Shown here in pieces: positions 32,516-64,000 of a stretch of 64,000 nucleotides of DNA. A model generated the notes under the pieces. It saw nothing but the letters and a program-made list of their open reading frames with translations, searched no databases and was not told the origin of the DNA. The stretch comes from a virus (lineage: Duplodnaviria; Caudoviricetes), in the IMG/VR virus record IMGVR_UViG_3300037067_018433, one strand, 5' to 3'. The position numbers and the translations under genes were made by a program. Each line of letters begins with the position of its first letter. The stretch's first letter is position 1.

Positions 32516-33268
32516 ATGTCGGATACCTCGACCCAGGACCTGAGCCTGTGGCGGCAGTGGGATGCCGGAGGGCGCAAGCCTGACGACATGGAGCCGCTGC
32601 TCGACAAGTTCGCGCCCTTGATCGAGAGCCACTACCGACGGTACGCCGGACACGTCAACATCCCGGACGTCGCGATCCGAGCAGACCTCGAGAACAGGTT
32701 CGCGCAGGCGGTCAAGACCTACGATCCGACCAAGGGCACGCAGCTGTCGACCCACGTGTGGGGCAACCTCAAGGGGGTCCACCGGTTCGTGGTCCAGCAG
32801 CAGAACATGTCCAGGATCCCCGAGAACCAGGCGTCGCGCATTGCGCAGATGACGGCCGCCGTCCACACGCTGCAAGAGGACTTCGGTCGGGTACCGGACA
32901 ACGCGGTACTGGCCAGCTACATGAACTGGAGCCCGACGCAGGTGATGCGCCTGCGCAAGTCCATGCGCAAGGACCTGTCGAGCACCCAGTTCCTGGTTCC
33001 GGTGGGTGCGGTCATGCCCTCCCGCTGGGAGGCGATCAAGGCGCTGCTGCCCACCGAGTTGACCCCCAAGCAGCAGTTCGTGTTCAAGCACACGACCGGT
33101 GCGGGCGGCGCACCCATCCTCCAGGCGCAGGCCATCGCCAAGAAGCTGCACATGTCCAATGCCTCCGTCAGCAGGGCGCGAGCGGAGATCGCTGGGATCC
33201 TGGAGCGATACGGCGTGCTCACGCAGGCACCTAATGCGCCGTCCGACCCCGGGACCGAGGTGGATTGA
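32516..33268 (+). CDS. phage-encoded sigma70-family sigma factor (group-3-like, regions 2-4)
   Basis: Region 2 AVKTYDPTKGTQLSTHVW; region 3 LQEDFGRVPD..LA; region 4 LTPKQQFVF...AIAKKLHMSNASVSR. Confidence 0.8.
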   Translation: MSDTSTQDLSLWRQWDAGGRKPDDMEPLLDKFAPLIESHYRRYAGHVNIPDVAIRADLENRFAQAVKTYDPTKGTQLSTHVWGNLKGVHRFVVQQQNMSRIPENQASRIAQMTAAVHTLQEDFGRVPDNAVLASYMNWSPTQVMRLRKSMRKDLSSTQFLVPVGAVMPSRWEAIKALLPTELTPKQQFVFKHTTGAGGAPILQAQAIAKKLHMSNASVSRARAEIAGILERYGVLTQAPNAPSDPGTEVD

Positions 33269-34746
33269 TGGACGCGCCCAAGGTCGACGCGGGTCCCGAC
33301 AAGACCGTGCGGAAGACGGAGGTCGCTGGGATCCCCGTCAACATCGAGCGACCCAAGGGCGTCGTCAAGGTGTTCCCCAAGGGCTACACGCAGCTGTACA
33401 AGGTCGACTACGGATCAACTCCGTTGGCCAAGGGCGTGGATGGAGATCCCCTTGATATCTTCGTGGGCCCGGACAAGTCGTCGAAGACTGTGTTCGTGGT
33501 CGACAAGATGACGGACAAGGATCACTCGGCATTCGACGAGCACAAGGTACTGCTGGGCTTCCGGAGCAAGGGGGACGCACGGGATTGCGTGAAGTTCCAC
33601 TTGTGGGGCACCGACGGGAAGATCAAGCAGATGAGCATCGACAACTTCCTCAAGTCGATCCGAGGGGGAGTGGACAGGTTGGGGAAGCAGGCGGCCGCGT
33701 TGCCGCTGGAGCGTGGTTCCATGATCGACCCATGGCAGGTCGTCGGGTTCATGAGCGTGATGGGCGACGAGAAGACGGCGTTCTCTCTTGCCGACATCCC
33801 GCGCGAGGTCTGGGGTGGGCTGGCGGGCGGCGCGCTCGGGGGTCTTGGTGGATACGGAGCGACCTCCGACCCCCTCAACAAGAAGCGGAACACCGTACTC
33901 GGGGCGCTCGGTGGGGCGGCGGCCGGCGCCGGGCTGGCGCACCTCACGGCCCCCGACGCCAAGCCCGACCCGAAGTTCACCTCTGCCCCCGGTACCGCGT
34001 CTCCGGTCAAGCCAGGGCTCCCGGAGCAAGGCAAGCTGCCCTCTGCCCAGGTGGAGCCCACGCTGCAGCGTTCGGAGGCCGCAGTACGCCAGCAGGCGCA
34101 GCAGCAGATGACCCAGCAGGCGGTCCAGTTCTCGGCGGCCCGCGAGCGCGCCTCCCTGCTCAAGGACCAGGGGCAGGTGATGGCTCGAACCCAGGCGCTG
34201 TTGGCGCCGCGTGAGGCTCCGACCATGCCCAAGGGCGTCCCGCCGCGGAACATGGTCCTTGCTCCCGGCGGCCGGGTGATGTTCCAGCGGGTGGCCAACA
34301 GCGTGGCTCCCGGATCTCTGATGGGCAAGGCGGCGGCGTTGGCGAACGGTGGTGCGAAGCTGGACCTGCTGCGCACGAACCCGAAGCTGGCCCTGGCCAT
34401 CGGCGTGAATCTGCGGAAGCACGCGAGCGGTTGGGGGAGCCTGCTCAAGGGGCTCGGGCTGGTGGCGGGTGTCGGCGCTGCAGGCTACGGCATCCGCGAG
34501 GGGGTCGACTGGCTGGGGCGAAAGGCGGTCGACACCGCCACGCAGGGCGTCAAGGACATTACTGAGGCAATCACGCCGGGGGTCGAGCAGGTTGGCGAGC
34601 AAGGGGCCGATCTTGCGAGGAAGTACGGGCCCGGTCTGTGGGTTGACCAGAAGATGCCGTGGATCCGGGATACGCTTGCCCCTGCCAAGCCCTTGATCAA
34701 TCCCAGCACCCCGATGGGATTGTTCCCGAGCCCGGTGACCCAGTGA
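33268..34746 (+). CDS. inorganic pyrophosphatase (InPase-like) domain fused to KxA-delimited glycine-zipper modules
   Basis: IERPKG, DYG, GVDGDPLDIFVGP, FDEHKVLLGF. Confidence 0.75.
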   Translation: MDAPKVDAGPDKTVRKTEVAGIPVNIERPKGVVKVFPKGYTQLYKVDYGSTPLAKGVDGDPLDIFVGPDKSSKTVFVVDKMTDKDHSAFDEHKVLLGFRSKGDARDCVKFHLWGTDGKIKQMSIDNFLKSIRGGVDRLGKQAAALPLERGSMIDPWQVVGFMSVMGDEKTAFSLADIPREVWGGLAGGALGGLGGYGATSDPLNKKRNTVLGALGGAAAGAGLAHLTAPDAKPDPKFTSAPGTASPVKPGLPEQGKLPSAQVEPTLQRSEAAVRQQAQQQMTQQAVQFSAARERASLLKDQGQVMARTQALLAPREAPTMPKGVPPRNMVLAPGGRVMFQRVANSVAPGSLMGKAAALANGGAKLDLLRTNPKLALAIGVNLRKHASGWGSLLKGLGLVAGVGAAGYGIREGVDWLGRKAVDTATQGVKDITEAITPGVEQVGEQGADLARKYGPGLWVDQKMPWIRDTLAPAKPLINPSTPMGLFPSPVTQ

Positions 34747-58793: not shown

Positions 58794-59774
58794 CTACTCC
58801 TCTTCGTTGCTTGGGGCGTCGTCCTCGTACCGCTTTTCCGTCGGTACTAGGGGATCCACATCCTCCTTGTGTAGAATGATCCAAAGAAGGTTGTCGCACC
58901 TGTCTTTGCTACGCGAGCCACTGGCCAGCGCATCCAACGACGCGAGGCACTCCTTGACCCCTGCGTAGATGTCCTCGAACAGCTCGTTCGTAGGACAATC
59001 CTCGCTGAACTCCGTGGTCGACCAGATGGTGTCCAGACAGCTGACCGCGAACGCGTCCGCTTCGGGGGAGAGGTCACCGTTTTCCTTCCGCAGCTTCCGC
59101 ACGCCGCCCGCGTCAGGGATGCACACAAGACTCGGGCGCTGCTTCCACTCTTCCGCGTCCTTCTTCGCGCGCCGCGCTTTCGCCGCGCGCCGCTTTTCCC
59201 CTTGCGCCGCTTCTTCGGGATTCATGAAGACCTGATCTCGTGCGTCGAACTTGTCTTCGTGCTCCCATTTGATCCAGGGAATGGCCCACCCGGTGCACCG
59301 CAGTTGCTCTTCCAGGATATCCGCGAGCGCGAACGGCGTCACGTGTGCAACCGTGGCAACAGGGACAAGCTCGGTCTTTCCTACTTGTAGCTGGTAGGGG
59401 TTTCCTCCCTTCGCCGTTGCCGGCATGTTCCACGTCCGTAGAAGAAGGCCGCCATTGGTCGACACGTAGGTGTCCAGCCGCATGTCCCTCAGCTCTTCGA
59501 GGATGGAGAGCACACCAGAATCTATCGTCTCCAGGTCGGCAACCATCGCCGCTTCCACCTTGTGGATGTCCATCTTCTGAAGGTCCGAGATGAACTTGTT
59601 TCCGTCAGGAATCCAGTAGAGCTGGGGGAGTTCGTTTTCGGCTCCAGGCCACTCCCATTCGACGATCCGAGGGCCCACATTCTCCAGGGCCGCTATCATG
59701 TCCGACGTTCCGTAGAAGGACCCAGGAACCCTCGTCCAACTCCACTTCAGCTGCGCTACCTTCGTGCTTGCCAT
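58794..59774 (-). CDS. hypothetical protein
   Basis: SD GAGGAG; 326-aa open frame. Confidence 0.7.
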   Translation of the reverse strand: MASTKVAQLKWSWTRVPGSFYGTSDMIAALENVGPRIVEWEWPGAENELPQLYWIPDGNKFISDLQKMDIHKVEAAMVADLETIDSGVLSILEELRDMRLDTYVSTNGGLLLRTWNMPATAKGGNPYQLQVGKTELVPVATVAHVTPFALADILEEQLRCTGWAIPWIKWEHEDKFDARDQVFMNPEEAAQGEKRRAAKARRAKKDAEEWKQRPSLVCIPDAGGVRKLRKENGDLSPEADAFAVSCLDTIWSTTEFSEDCPTNELFEDIYAGVKECLASLDALASGSRSKDRCDNLLWIILHKEDVDPLVPTEKRYEDDAPSNEEE

Positions 59775-59805
59775 TTTTCTCCTCTGGCCTTGCGGCCGTC
59801 ACGTG

Positions 59806-60171
59806 CTATTGAAGCGGCTTCCCGTAGGGCTCCTCCCACGAGATGCTGTCCCTGAGCGCGATCAAGCGAGCGAGCTCCTCCTGTTTGTGGCGCAGCTGGT
59901 CCTCCAGCTGGTAGATGGCGTCACGAGCCGTGACGCACTGCAGGTGGATCACGGTCTTCCGCTCATCCCTCTTCGCCAGGGTCACGGTGGCGAAGCGGAA
60001 GGACCCCTCCAACTTGTCCCACTCCGTTCCCGAGACGAACAACATTCCGCTATCGAAGATGTCCTTCGACTCCTTCAGCGACAGGTTGTTTCTGAGCCTG
60101 TAGAGCGCATTGACCGCGCTGAGCTTGGTCGGGGGCTCGAGCTTCGACGCATCGTACGTCACCTTCAACAT
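59806..60171 (-). CDS. protein with ribosomal L7/L12 C-terminal-domain-like motif and coiled coil
   Basis: KLSAVNALYRLRNNLSLKESKDIFD resembles K..VIK.VR...GLGLKEAKDLVE; SD AGGAGGAG. Confidence 0.55.
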   Translation of the reverse strand: MLKVTYDASKLEPPTKLSAVNALYRLRNNLSLKESKDIFDSGMLFVSGTEWDKLEGSFRFATVTLAKRDERKTVIHLQCVTARDAIYQLEDQLRHKQEELARLIALRDSISWEEPYGKPLQ

Positions 60172-60183
60172 CTGCTCCTCCTT

Positions 60184-60353
60184 TGGCCTTGCGGCCGATC
60201 GGTCCGGTGAGCTGTCGGATGATAGCCGTGGAGGTCAGGGGAACCGACTAACCCCGACAGCTCACCGGACCGGGGGACCCGACGGGTCCCCTGTACGGTC
60301 CGGAGAGGAAGCGGACGAGATGGGGCCCTTACGGCGAATCCATAGCTTCCTCT
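60184..60353 (-). ncRNA. candidate structured leader or ncRNA
   Basis: Perfect 19-bp IR 60200-60218/60254-60272; 8-bp hairpin 60273-60291; 9-bp stem 60304-60312/60345-60353; GCAA tetraloop hairpin. Confidence 0.55.
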
Positions 60354-60394
60354 GTTCATTGATCTTATGCCAAATCGAGCCTTCTCGTTTTCGC
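60354..60394 (-). promoter_or_regulatory. bipartite motif GCGAAAAC-N14-TGGCATAAGATCAATGAAC (second copy)
   Basis: Matches 7684-7723; heads the leftward operon. Confidence 0.6.
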
Positions 60395-60477
60395 TTCCGG
60401 GCCTGGTTTTCACCGACAACCCCCCGGTGGTACGCTGGAACTATCAACACGGCGCACAGCGCCTGAAGGAGCAAACC

Positions 60478-62892
60478 ATGGTACTTTCGCGAACCCTCAG
60501 CACGACCACCCGGGAGTTCTGGACCGAGACCGCGGCCACGCTCATCGGGGGCACGGCCATCGCCCACACCACCCTGCTCCAGCGGGACATCAACAACATC
60601 CGCAAGCCGGTGGTCAAGGTGAAGCTCAGCATCGTCACCCTGGTCCCCGTGATCACCTGCGACGTCACGTACGACGCGGGCGGCTTCATGATCGTCACGC
60701 TGACCAACACGGCGGCCGTCGGGACGTCCGCCGCCTACACCCTGGACATCCAGTGGGCGACCATCGTGAACAACGGGACCGCCGATCCGAGCTTCTCGTA
60801 CGACACGCTGGCGGCCATCGCCGCACCGCCGGTCAACCGGGTGTACGTCGACGGGACTCTGGGTGACGACAACAACGACGGGTCGTCCTACACCCAGGCC
60901 TGGAAGACGCTGGACTACCTGCGCAAGCAGCTCGAGGCGCAGAAGGCGCTGTTCCCGGGCACCGCCACGACCTACGTCCACACGCGTGGTGCGTGGGCCG
61001 CCGACGACCACCTGGCGCTCACCGCGCTCCAGCAGGGTCTCGGGCGCATCGTCATCGGCTGCGACTTCGACAACAGCACGCTGCTGCAGACGGGTACGGT
61101 CACCACGATCCACGACCACATCCCGGCGACGGCCGTGCCGCTGCACGACCTGTGCTACATCTCGCTCACCGGAATCGTCCTGACGTCGGCCGACGAAGGG
61201 CGCCACGTCCGGTTCATCGACGCGACCGGTGCCAACTACGCCACCGCTCAGATCATGCAGCGCATCTCGGCGACCGAGTGCTGGATCAACTGGCGCTTCG
61301 GTGCAGGCGGCGTGAACCCCGAGCGTGCGGCGTTCGTGGTCGGCGGCGACGTCATCACCGCGCAGATCTTCGAGTCGACTGCGCTCATCGCCGGGCGCAT
61401 CATCCTGGGCGCCGAAGGGCGCATCCCGCAGGCGGCTACCGGCGTCACTTCCGGCCAGGGCGTCTCGCTGCTCAACCTGCGCACCTACAACCAGGCCCTG
61501 CTCTACGGAACCGGCGGCGGCGCCGTATGGATCGACGCGCGCAATGCGGCGGGCACCGCGCAGCCCATCGTGGCTGTGGGTGGCGCGGGCACGTGCCTCG
61601 GCACCTGGACCAGCGACTGGACGCACCCGGACGACATGCAGGAGTTCGGGTTCGCGGATGCGGTCAACGCCGGCTACGCGACGGGTTGTCGCGGCTCCAA
61701 CGTCACGGCGACCGCGGGTGTGACCTCCGTTCACGGGCTGTTCACCGGTACCCTGTCGCTGAGCGCCACGGTGACCGCGGTCGGCGTCCGCGCGCAGTCC
61801 ATCCAGTCGGTGGGCGCGGGTGCGGCACTCGCCTCCTACTGCATGGCGGATGCCGGAACGACCACGACCGCACCTCCGTACATGGCGAACGCTGGCGGCA
61901 TTCTGGCAACCGACCGCTGTTGCGTCGTCACCGGCAACGTGGCCGGTCTGACCACGGGCTACTGGGTGGTGAGCGACGGCGGCCGCCTCAAGGTCACGAA
62001 CTGTTCGGGTCTCAACTACGGTACGGGCGTCGGGCTGTTCGGTCTGTACGCCGATCGCAAGGGCACCTTCGAGATCGACGGCGTGTCCATGGCGGCCATC
62101 GACGGGAAGAACGGCCGCCTGCGCATGCTCGGGACCAACGGCGAGATCAGCGACGCCGCGACCATCCCCGCCAGCTTCGGGGGCGGCGCCGACATCTTCG
62201 TCCAGGACGGCGTTCTGTGCCTCAACATGGACGTGCTCAAGGGTGCCGTCAACTCGGCGACCGCCATCCAGAACGGCGCGGACGGCCAGATCGTGGCCAT
62301 CGGCACCCAGTTCATCTCGGCTACCGCCGTGTTCACCGCTGGTCACGTCGGGCGCAGCATCAAGGTGAGCGGTTCAGGGACCCCGGCGAACAACGACGTC
62401 CACGTCATCACGGCGTACACCAACCCGACCACCGTCGTCATCGGCGGCGCCGTCGGTCTGGTCAACGATGCGGGCCTCACCTGGGGCCTCGTGGGCACCG
62501 GCAACACGTTCATCGAGTGCGGGCGTGGCGGTCACGTCGTGCAGTCGGCGGGCATGAACTTCAGCATCAAGGAGCCTGAGGTCGATCCTGTCACGACGTT
62601 CCAGGATTGGGACGACTACGGCTACGGGGCGCTCGGCGCCATCTACATGCACGAGGACACGAGCATGACCCTCGGGACGCTCGTCGAGCCCGCGGGTGTC
62701 GCGACGGCGACCGGGCTCGCCGCGACCATCCTCAACCACTCGACGCTCCTGCACACGGGTGGCGCGGTCCTGCTGGGTGTGGCGCCGCTGCAGCTTGGCG
62801 GTGCGGCGGCTGCCGCGTGGCCGGCGGCCTCCGCGAGCGACCTGGCGGCTGGCGTTCCGCAGTTCTGCTTCATCCTGCCGGCTGTCGTCTGA
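60478..62892 (+). CDS. spike/fibre-like protein, probable beta-helix
   Basis: SD AAGGAG; VYVDGTLGDDNNDGSSYTQAWKTL is typical of the entry to beta-helix domains. Confidence 0.65.
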   Translation: MVLSRTLSTTTREFWTETAATLIGGTAIAHTTLLQRDINNIRKPVVKVKLSIVTLVPVITCDVTYDAGGFMIVTLTNTAAVGTSAAYTLDIQWATIVNNGTADPSFSYDTLAAIAAPPVNRVYVDGTLGDDNNDGSSYTQAWKTLDYLRKQLEAQKALFPGTATTYVHTRGAWAADDHLALTALQQGLGRIVIGCDFDNSTLLQTGTVTTIHDHIPATAVPLHDLCYISLTGIVLTSADEGRHVRFIDATGANYATAQIMQRISATECWINWRFGAGGVNPERAAFVVGGDVITAQIFESTALIAGRIILGAEGRIPQAATGVTSGQGVSLLNLRTYNQALLYGTGGGAVWIDARNAAGTAQPIVAVGGAGTCLGTWTSDWTHPDDMQEFGFADAVNAGYATGCRGSNVTATAGVTSVHGLFTGTLSLSATVTAVGVRAQSIQSVGAGAALASYCMADAGTTTTAPPYMANAGGILATDRCCVVTGNVAGLTTGYWVVSDGGRLKVTNCSGLNYGTGVGLFGLYADRKGTFEIDGVSMAAIDGKNGRLRMLGTNGEISDAATIPASFGGGADIFVQDGVLCLNMDVLKGAVNSATAIQNGADGQIVAIGTQFISATAVFTAGHVGRSIKVSGSGTPANNDVHVITAYTNPTTVVIGGAVGLVNDAGLTWGLVGTGNTFIECGRGGHVVQSAGMNFSIKEPEVDPVTTFQDWDDYGYGALGAIYMHEDTSMTLGTLVEPAGVATATGLAATILNHSTLLHTGGAVLLGVAPLQLGGAAAAAWPAASASDLAAGVPQFCFILPAVV

Positions 62893-62908
62893 GCATAGGA
62901 GGTCCTCC

Positions 62909-63832
62909 TTGCCGGCGTTCATCCACGACCGTGCCAAACGGATCATGAAGTCCACGGTCCCCGAGTACGGCAAGGAGAAGGGGAAGCAGGTGGCCTTCGC
63001 TCTAGCGACCCAAGAAGCACACGCCATGGGCAAGTCCCCCAAGACCTGGAAGGGCGAGCCGTTCGGTACTGCCCAGGGGCGTCGCGAGGCCAAGGCCAAG
63101 TTCCCCCACCCCTCCAAGATGAAGAAGACCGCCGAGGACCCGGTCACCGGGCTCCCGACGGCAGACGAGATCGCGGAGCACGTTCGGGTGGGGATGATGG
63201 AAGCGGGGAAGCCCTTGGACAACGGCGTGCTCAAGACCAACGCGCTCGCAGCGGTCACCCCTATCATGGCGTCGATCGACGCCTACCTCAAGAAGGCGGA
63301 TGGCGAGCCGTCCGAGGACCAGGTGGCCGAGTTCCTTCAGCGGAACCCGAACCCGTCGGACGACGCCTTCCACCAGTGGGCAGAAGGCCATGGGTGGGAG
63401 CCGGACGACGCGGAGGCCGTGGCCTACCGGCTGGCGACGCAGAAGGCACAGTTCAACCTCGGCGGCAAGGCGAACGAGGCAGGAAAGACGCCGGCGGATG
63501 TCGACCAAGACCAGCTGGCCAAGGGCCTGATCGTGGAGAAGGAGCACACGCCCAACCTCCAGGACCGGGCTCGGATCAGCACCGATCACATCGTCGAGGA
63601 TGGCAAGTACTACGACGACCCCATGTTCAAGTCCGACCTGAAGAAGACGGGCACCATCAGCTTCGAGAACGGGAAGTTCGTGCTCCACACCAAGGGCGGC
63701 GGTCGGGTCCTGGGGAAGCACCCGGATCGCGCTTCGGCTGTCCGCCAGGAGCGAGCGGTGCACGTCAACAAGCATGCGGCGATTGACGTAGAGGTCCTCA
63801 TCCCCCACGTACTGGAGGCGCTTGGTGGCTGA
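62909..63832 (+). CDS. modular KxA-punctuated protein containing a DUF5661-like domain
   Basis: SD AGGAGG plus TTG; QLAKGLIVEKEHT......ISTDHIVEDGKYY; C-terminal GKFVLHTKGGGRVLGKHPDR..A.RQERAV module. Confidence 0.7.
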   Translation: MPAFIHDRAKRIMKSTVPEYGKEKGKQVAFALATQEAHAMGKSPKTWKGEPFGTAQGRREAKAKFPHPSKMKKTAEDPVTGLPTADEIAEHVRVGMMEAGKPLDNGVLKTNALAAVTPIMASIDAYLKKADGEPSEDQVAEFLQRNPNPSDDAFHQWAEGHGWEPDDAEAVAYRLATQKAQFNLGGKANEAGKTPADVDQDQLAKGLIVEKEHTPNLQDRARISTDHIVEDGKYYDDPMFKSDLKKTGTISFENGKFVLHTKGGGRVLGKHPDRASAVRQERAVHVNKHAAIDVEVLIPHVLEALGG

Positions 63833-64000
63833 CCCATCGCCCAGCCTCATTCAGGACGTGCTGGCCGGCGACCCGAGCGCGGCCGCCGAGCTGCAAAGGA
63901 TGCAGGAGTCCGACGTTCGTTCGAGCTTCGCGGGTCCCAACAAGGGCCCGCTGTCCTCTATCTTCGCCCGTGCGCTCCTAGGCCGCAGCAGGAGCCCGTC
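63825..64000 (+). CDS. hypothetical protein (truncated by window end)
   Basis: SD GGAGG plus GTG; open to the window edge. Confidence 0.55.
   Translation, partial: MADPSPSLIQDVLAGDPSAAAELQRMQESDVRSSFAGPNKGPLSSIFARALLGRSRSP

Follow-up and report, generated by a model that had tools for sequence, protein, structure and literature searches.

P0001, a protein of 307 amino acids (aa), is encoded near the end of a 64,000-nucleotide (nt) stretch of phage DNA (Duplodnaviria; Caudoviricetes; IMG/VR record IMGVR_UViG_3300037067_018433), the whole of which is called the window below. The protein is built from small modules whose joints carry Lys-x-Ala (K-x-A) or K-x-G tripeptides. We propose that P0001 may be a small polyvalent-like cargo protein of the phage head, cut at its joints after K-x-A by a protease resembling gp21 of phage T4, a reading that we consider evenly balanced and that the comparative data support in part. 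P0001 would then be a mix-and-match cargo protein of a ~200-kb phage, read in the order N-terminal domain (module A, modA), spacer ending in an amphipathic peptide, DUF5661-type domain (module B), insert and short C-terminal helix. It would enter the prohead, addressed by modA and/or the short peptides, and a T4 gp21-like head protease would then cut it after K-x-A at the joints and release a basic piece of 8.3 kDa, a DUF5661 domain of ~13 kDa and small peptides. It is reasonable to infer that the virion would hold several mature peptides.

A preliminary description of the window had placed the gene and four such tripeptides, numbered here sites 1 to 4 from the N-terminus; gene and sites were all confirmed from the sequence (Table 1). 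A fifth K-x-[AG], K262-G-G264, had been missed; it lies inside the stretch described there as a beta module.

Modular architecture of P0001 and its relatives

A phmmer search of 1.84 billion representative proteins gave 1135 matches at an expectation value (E) of ≤1e-3, and 171 proteins were fetched. The matches split into two separable classes, the modA type and the module B type. modA always stands at the N-terminus (51 of the 171 fetched proteins and 27 IMG/VR loci), and module B, whose halves are termed B1 and B2, is found as stand-alone proteins of 117-150 aa or as the N-terminal, central or C-terminal part of larger ones. The architectures were B1-B2 (118 proteins), A alone (57), A-B1-B2 (10), A-B2-B1 (6), A-B2 (5) and B2-B1 (2). 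In addition, modA occurs joined to an InPase domain (P0026) and to tails that are Gly-rich or of other kinds, and in relatives module B is found with partners such as an XkdF-type head protease and a methyltransferase. The beads-on-a-string build that had been suggested is borne out by modules found alone, reordered and with other partners. This holds for modA, B1 and B2, but not for the spacer and the insert: neither the spacer region (residues 76-130) nor the C-terminal part (residues 246-307) had a homologue among the 171 fetched proteins, and a dedicated search for stand-alone forms of residues 240-307 gave no candidates. An ESM Atlas search with the same residues yielded nothing but small phage clusters without names, at 0.84-0.90, to be taken simply as leads. 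Spacer and insert are both missing from P0002, the closest orthologue (226 aa; BLASTP identity 71%, and 83-84% where the two proteins match).

modA had no Pfam or PHROG match and is, by these comparisons, a new, unnamed domain family. Its genes were found on 27 IMG/VR contigs, mostly of 100-210 kb, and P0001 on contigs of up to ~204 kb. P0001 looks like a derived form of the modA family with DUF5661 inserted.

The commonest form of the family is a protein of 123-156 aa (loci L014, L018, L020-L022, L024, L026, L027, L029 and L030), in which modA is followed by K-x-A, a short linker, K-(T/S)-(S/A), ..W.GF.DEL.KIA, a variable stretch and a conserved Pro-rich C-terminus (..PPP(V/L)(T/A)..). In P0025 and P0027, modA is fused to a Lys-rich protein with a C-x-C...C-x-x-C motif. 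This Lys-rich protein is a separate next gene in L026 and L027 (L026:3001-3453, then L026:3446-4831), which therefore indicates gene fusion or fission across a K-x-A-rich joint.

The AlphaFold2 model of P0001, based on a 105-sequence alignment, has a mean predicted local distance difference test score (pLDDT) of 79. The score falls below 50 at residues 75-81, just after modA. The spacer had no Pfam or PHROG match; helices 85-98 and 105-128 of this region are modelled at pLDDT 60-76, the second of them ending at K128. Module B had been described as an acidic module plus a DUF5661-like motif; modelled alone, B1 and B2 form a single compact domain (pLDDT 94, predicted template modelling score 0.81), although the two halves are indeed separable in relatives. 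Helix 238-246 ends at K246. What had been called a small beta module is instead a lineage-specific insert, consisting of one beta hairpin (residues 249-260) and low-confidence sequence, for which no homologue was found. Model confidence is low from residue 264 to 300, and K288 lies just past helix 274-286. Family scans of the insert gave only weak matches to phrog_3684 (E 1e-3) and DUF5818 (E 0.05). Fold searches with the whole model and with module B alone (Foldseek against PDB, BFVD, VIA-align wide) returned no significant match. Generic three-helix bundles with Z scores of 5-6 over residues 130-179 were set aside as below the noise level for helical proteins, and the sole result of a PDB profile search was a homeodomain at E 0.006; no function was drawn from either.

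Module B is a DUF5661 domain by homology. In the phmmer search, residues ~133-237 gave matches at E 1e-14 to 1e-25. The Pfam model PF18905 (DUF5661; gathering cut-off 27 bits) covers only the C-terminal half of the domain. It was the sole Pfam match of P0001, with scores below the cut-off for the whole protein (19.3 bits, E 1.5e-3) and for residues 131-248 alone (21.1 bits), and it scored at or above 27 bits in 7 of the 10 large homologues scanned. Five of these seven matched at E 6e-10 to 3e-16, and P0031, P0093 and P0137 score 52-60 bits. The conserved motif E-x-E-H ... D-H ... E ... Y-Y is present in module B, and G206, E210, E212, H213, D226 and H227 are invariant in 84 aligned sequences; these invariant residues are a probable candidate metal site. 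DUF5661 also occurs in Synechococcus, Vibrio and Caulobacter phages.

Lys-x-Ala at the module joints

The preliminary description had put the tripeptides at apparent domain edges. The homology envelopes of P0001 (residues 1-75 and ~127/138-237), the AlphaFold2 model and the insertions and deletions relative to P0002, which coincide with the positions of the flagged sites, each agree with this. In the model, every flagged site lies at a helix end or 2-3 residues beyond it, and sites 1-3 also lie at steps in confidence. The placement is non-random: none of the 16 Lys residues within the two conserved domains begins a K-x-[AG], compared with 5 of the 14 outside them (Fisher p=0.014). What had been observed holds for the positions, and its statistical weight is modest.

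K-x-A is present at site 1 in 58 of 75 distinct modA relatives, as KTA (36), KSA (10), KAA (6), KKA (2), KVA (2), KGA (1) or KQA (1). Column conservation is 0.84 for the Lys, 0.92 for the Ala and 0.23 for the next residue, and in several of the sequences that depart from K-x-A a second K-(T/S)-(S/A) follows within a few residues. Site 1 is the strongest candidate cut site among the four, and its cleavage seems slightly more probable than its persistence.

Site 2 closes the peptide IMASIDAYLKKA; in P0002, K-T-A is followed immediately by SIMVSVDGYLAKVA. In ~25 of 57 non-redundant relatives the corresponding place holds a peptide of the pattern ..MF.GF.DEL.K(I/L)A, usually between two K-x-[AS], and TPIMASIDAYLKKA in P0001 is probably the counterpart of this family-wide peptide, an equivalence drawn by eye only. 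K-x-A stands ≤15 residues before B1 in 7 of 10 modA proteins, compared with 15 of 53 others (p=0.016). We place the chance that site 2 is cut a little below even.

At site 4, K-x-[AGS] precedes a hhP(H/Y)hL helix by 6-8 residues in P0002, P0003, P0030 and P0032, as it does in the product of the downstream gene in two phages. The C-terminal helix peptide of P0001 recurs within the product of the downstream gene (..SLVETLVPYVLDAL..), bracketed by K-S-A and K-E-A, and in the downstream orthologue of the related phage L001 it is bracketed by K-T-A on both sides. Between L001 and contig L002, which extends past the window end, the Lys and Ala of both flanks are kept and x differs. Cutting at site 4 is possible, somewhat less so than at site 2.

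Site 3 (K-T-G) falls where stand-alone DUF5661 proteins end. Orthologues have K-S-A, K-A-G, K-K-G or another K-x-[AGS] at this position, and the K-T-S of P0002 fits site 3 or site 4 equally well by eye. K-x-[AGS] is present there in all nine longer-tailed modA relatives, compared with 45 of 64 others (p=0.055); for strict K-x-A the counts are 6 of 9 and 25 of 64, which is not significant. Site 3 is the weakest of the four flagged sites and is unlikely to be cut. The idea that sites 3 and 4 are a duplicated junction (KTGTISFE and KHAAIDVE; KTSSISIE in P0002) was rejected for too low identity.

The units that recur are whole amphipathic peptides of 13-18 residues (..GF.DEL.KIA; ..L(I/V)P(H/Y)VL..L) and not bare tripeptides. 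This would also be expected if K-x-A and its flanking peptides were an addressing or docking signal for a scaffold, portal or other partner and the protein were packaged or assembled whole; the presence of the C-terminal peptide in two adjacent gene products would fit a shared docking partner. We regard this explanation as improbable, as site 1 and many of the tail sites have no such peptide. Moreover, addressing and cutting need not be alternatives, as the T4 targeting peptide itself ends in the gp21 protease motif.

Across the family, K-x-A is enriched in the sequence that follows modA. In 57 non-redundant tails, amounting to 13.3 kb of sequence, 187 K-x-A were counted against 127.6 expected (z=6.2), and 159 against 124 (z=3.6) remained after deletion of the conserved DEL.KIA peptide. 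The controls K-A, K-x-x-A and A-x-K were within 1 to 1.4 standard deviations of expectation; in the same tails K-x-S was not enriched and K-x-G was depleted (z=-3). Inside modA, K-x-A is under-represented, which counts as a single observation given that the sequences are homologous. Two small plus-strand proteins encoded ~9-10 kb past the window end also have many of their Lys residues in K-x-A: 4 of 5 for L002:19965-20300 (p=0.006) and 6 of 17 for L002:20321-20830 (p=0.05). The latter contains ..FFKIAEK.., which resembles the DEL.KIA peptide.

The head protease of related phages and the case for cleavage

Relatives of this phage encode a head protease that is T4 gp21-like by its motifs and family match. 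In the L026/L027 lineage, modA is encoded two genes downstream of a 536-575-aa protein that matches the head maturation protease family phrog_18299; the 536-aa protein of L026 does so at E 1.3e-7 and has HH and DVSMG(C/S/T) motifs. The modA gene of this lineage also adjoins that of an acidic, scaffold-like protein with repeated E-K-L-A. Protease orthologues were present in all five further complete IMG/VR genomes searched. The Pfam models Peptidase_S77, S78, S78_2 and Gp23 had no match in five related complete genomes; PHROG and protein searches found the protease. Near residue 30, all seven aligned orthologues have a K-x-A amid otherwise variable sequence, and after the catalytic HH ... SMG(C/S/T) core five of the seven have G-A-D-K-T-A and six have K-L-A shortly beyond.

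Two of the protease genes, at L039 (G005:C1:140900-146000) and L040 (G002:C1:62300-66900), are 1339 and 1223 codons long and carry intein-like inserts (C...HN-C/S) beside the catalytic HH and SMGC motifs. A further large insert, C-terminal and with K-x-A sites at its edges, is present in the G002 gene.

The nearest cultured relatives of the protease are found in Vibrio phages D69, D181 and D148 and in Salmonella phage Arash (gp222), and more distant ones in Bacillus phage G and cluster-C-type mycobacteriophages. The cultured relatives of the protease (Arash, Vibrio D69/D148/D181) open its specificity to bench tests. Three Arash proteins encoded around gp222 (L041, OQ632216.1 140800-153666), namely gp220, gp223 and gp225, have 10 of 21, 8 of 16 and 7 of 13 Lys residues in K-x-A (p≤0.005). 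A K-Q-A stands near residue 30 of Arash gp222, and residues 27-29 of gp226, annotated as the capsid protein, read K-E-A. The Arash paper describes the particle proteome without an analysis of cleavage, and its supplement is a gene table without peptide lists.

More tentatively, and with some doubt, a clade of ~170-210-kb phages could be envisaged with plug-and-play capsid cargo, in which modA would be the address, bracketed peptides (..GF.DEL.KIA, ..LIPHVL..L) would serve for docking and the head protease would cut after Lys-x-Ala. Through the shared protease, such a clade may reach the cultured Arash and Vibrio D69-type phages. If this were true, the host would receive, as a piece of its own, any small domain that lies between two K-x-A joints.

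Several observations weigh against cleavage of P0001 in the head. In shuffles of its composition (30 Lys, 39 Ala, 26 Gly), neither K-x-A (3 compared with 3.8 expected) nor K-x-[AG] (5 compared with 6.4) is above chance. P0003 and P0032 are without site 2. Site 3 ends in Gly, K-x-G being rarer than expected across the family; were Gly acceptable, a cut at K262-G-G264 would fall inside the insert. Helix C-termini often carry a Lys with a small residue after it; since Lys and Ala are also common, the placement at edges has a non-proteolytic explanation. The gene follows that of the fibre-like 804-aa protein, outside the head module, and modA, spacer and insert had no cultured-phage homologue in searches of phage records (modA at BLAST sensitivity). 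Finally, K-x-A enrichment is not exclusive to virion genes, because the minus-strand gene L002:17346-18254 (302 aa) also has 6 of its 19 Lys residues in K-x-A (1.9 expected, p=0.004). This gene lies in a leftward block, ~6.3-7.2 kb past the window end, and cleavage by a head protease does not account for its enrichment.

The motif count, the missing site 2 of P0003 and P0032, the position of all four sites at predicted helix ends and the weak status of K-x-G fit the main rival explanation. In it, P0001 would be an ordinary uncut multi-domain protein, K-x-A/G would reflect Lys/Ala-rich linkers and helix capping, and the K-T-A would be the structural end of modA. Likewise, some stand-alone DUF5661 proteins have M-E-K-E-A in their conserved C-terminal helix, with nothing after it to release. 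We nevertheless hold this explanation to be rather unlikely. The family-level enrichment is specific to Ala at +2, with or without the DEL.KIA peptide, and is absent for K-A, K-x-x-A and A-x-K, and plain capping does not predict the depletion of K-x-G. The flanks of the short peptides are conserved on both sides while x changes, and K-x-A recurs at the N-terminal flank of every aligned protease orthologue and is enriched in the Arash head proteins.

The proposed cutting of P0001 can be compared with known systems. The internal proteins of T4 (IPI-III, Alt) carry a capsid-targeting sequence, and the prohead protease is gp21 (PMC3012670). As in T4, small diverse cargo proteins would here share only a conserved N-terminal address, which would end in a protease tripeptide motif and be removed in the prohead, and the protease of the relatives is gp21-like (phrog_18299, HH and SMG(C/S/T)). 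In contrast to the Leu/Ile-x-Glu of T4, the candidate motif here is Lys-x-Ala; the N-terminal unit is a folded basic domain of 75 residues and not a 10-residue peptide, and the protein holds further internal peptides with a site on either side. In phage SPN3US, long N-terminal propeptides of head proteins undergo cleavage at several A-x-E motifs (PMC10052503). Features in common with SPN3US and phiKZ, whose ejection and head proteins are cut by gp245/gp175, are the giant phage, a multi-copy motif (there in head-protein propeptides) and a protease that processes itself (predicted here); the motif differs, the substrate families are unrelated, and the candidate sites here lie between independently occurring domains, not only within a propeptide.

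For polyvalent proteins of phages and conjugative elements, passages of Iyer et al. 2017 predict that InPase-type domains are packaged and propose processing into separate units (PMC5512222). P0001 resembles the proteins of these passages in that unrelated small domains are strung together and reshuffled among relatives, with six architectures and fusions to InPase, methyltransferase and XkdF-type protease; the modA-InPase fusion involves a domain which the same passages assign to phage polyvalent proteins. Neither modA nor DUF5661 is named in them. Polyvalent proteins are very large and multi-enzyme, typically with MuF or zincin-like metallopeptidase (MPTase) domains, whereas P0001 has only 307 residues and no MuF or zincin-like MPTase was found. 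A Pfam scan of P0001 revealed no enzymatic domain and no peptidase or MuF match at E≤1. Because P0001 is too small and without the signature domains, we call it polyvalent-like without counting it among the polyvalent proteins; because signature peptidase domains were not found in it, any processing would fall to the head protease instead of a peptidase within P0001 itself.

Herpesvirus assemblin belongs to the same broad fold class as the phage prohead proteases and has maturation sites of the form (V/L/I)-x-Ala|Ser. These are similar to K-x-A in having Ala directly before the cut and specificity two residues further upstream, but differ in that the upstream position holds a hydrophobic residue and not Lys; assemblin also comes from a eukaryotic virus.

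In the literature searched, no K-x-A prohead specificity and nothing on DUF5661 was found. The Lys-x-Ala specificity, the folded 75-residue N-terminal domain and the bracketed short peptides would set P0001 apart from the known systems; this work contributes a definition of modA, the recognition of the bracketed peptides and a corrected extent for DUF5661. If the joints are cut, Lys-x-Ala would be a new head-protease specificity beside Leu/Ile-x-Glu (T4) and Ala-x-Glu (phiKZ-like), P0001 would be a test case for the addressing of cargo in giant phages and its release in the capsid, and there would be a clue to the role of the very widespread DUF5661 (>1000 representative clusters). If they are not cut, a modest annotation gain remains, namely a new family of N-terminal domains and the corrected limits of DUF5661.

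Gene and genomic setting

The P0001 gene starts with TTG at 62909 and stops at 63830-63832. Although its frame extends back to 62696 without a stop, the stop codon of the upstream gene lies at 62890-62892, and orthologues have the N-terminus M-P-(A/E)-(F/W)-I-H-D-R-A in common. We assign the gene to 62909-63832 because the upstream stop, the spacing of the AGGAGG and the N-termini of the orthologues agree. The same gene call was obtained on two Logan contigs.

Table 1. Features of the P0001 gene, its modules, tripeptide sites and neighbouring genes, with positions in the 64,000-nt window.
Feature	Position	Strand	Basis and remarks
Upstream operon gene, 804 aa, Gly/Thr/Ala-rich, few Lys	60478..62892	+	Gene calls
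Ribosome-binding site AGGAGG	62898..62903	+	Read from sequence; 6 nt before TTG 62909
Gene for modular protein P0001, 307 aa	62909..63832	+	Open reading frame and translation
Module A (modA), residues 1-75, basic helical domain, isoelectric point (pI) 10.4	62909..63133	+	Homology; pLDDT 78-98
Site 1, K73-T-A75	63125..63133	+	Sequence
Helical spacer, lineage-specific, residues 76-116	63134..63256	+	Missing from P0002; pLDDT 50-76
Amphipathic peptide TPIMASIDAYLKKA, residues 117-130, ends in site 2	63257..63298	+	Sequence, alignment
Site 2, K128-K-A130	63290..63298	+	Sequence
Module B1, residues 131-186, acidic three-helix subdomain	63299..63466	+	Homology envelope; pLDDT >90
Module B2, residues 187-245, DUF5661 proper	63467..63643	+	PF18905 on homologues, invariant residues
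Site 3, K246-T-G248	63644..63652	+	Sequence
Insert, lineage-specific, residues 249-287	63653..63769	+	Missing from P0002; pLDDT 36-76
Fifth K-x-[AG], unflagged, K262-G-G264	63692..63700	+	Inside the lineage-specific insert
Site 4, K288-H-A290	63770..63778	+	Sequence; precedes the C-terminal helix
C-terminal helix AIDVEVLIPHVLEALGG, residues 291-307, recurrent short peptide	63779..63829	+	AlphaFold2 helix 294-306
Start of downstream gene, 468 aa on contig L002 (L002:10917-12323)	63825..64000	+	Gene calls on L002 and L001

P0001 is encoded by the second gene of a plus-strand operon of four (804, 307, 468 and 91 aa), the order of which is repeated on a related contig, and the downstream 468-aa gene overlaps the P0001 gene by 8 nt. 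PHROG and Pfam scans of the 804-aa protein gave no match. The G+C content of the window is 63-68%, and its large plus-strand genes match tail or baseplate families.

Translational coupling in an operon headed by the Gly/Thr-rich 804-aa protein, near the tail region, would also suit a protein that does not belong to the head at all. P0001 could assist the fibre-like 804-aa protein as an accessory or assembly factor, or it could be a DUF5661 enzyme of the cytoplasm, with modA serving, for example, in nucleic-acid binding; modA is strongly basic (pI 10.4), and in other lineages its gene adjoins a DNA ligase-like gene and a sigma factor. This explanation appears quite improbable to us, as the modA gene of L026/L027 stands beside the protease and the scaffold-like gene, and in relatives modA and DUF5661 are fused to InPase and XkdF-type protease, domains of a kind predicted to be packaged in passages of the polyvalent-protein paper (PMC5512222).

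Scanning of 59700-64000 for promoters and terminators revealed no sigma-70-like promoter and nothing above shuffled sequences. No paralogue of any P0001 module was found in the window or the flanking loci, and DNA and protein searches of phage records with the window stretch, whole P0001, P0009 and a small modA protein gave no match.

The window also encodes, at 33265-34746 (+), a 493-aa protein with an N-terminal InPase domain (PF18823, E 2e-21), the kind of domain that stands behind modA in the relative P0026. This 493-aa protein also matches minor head or DarB-like PHROGs.

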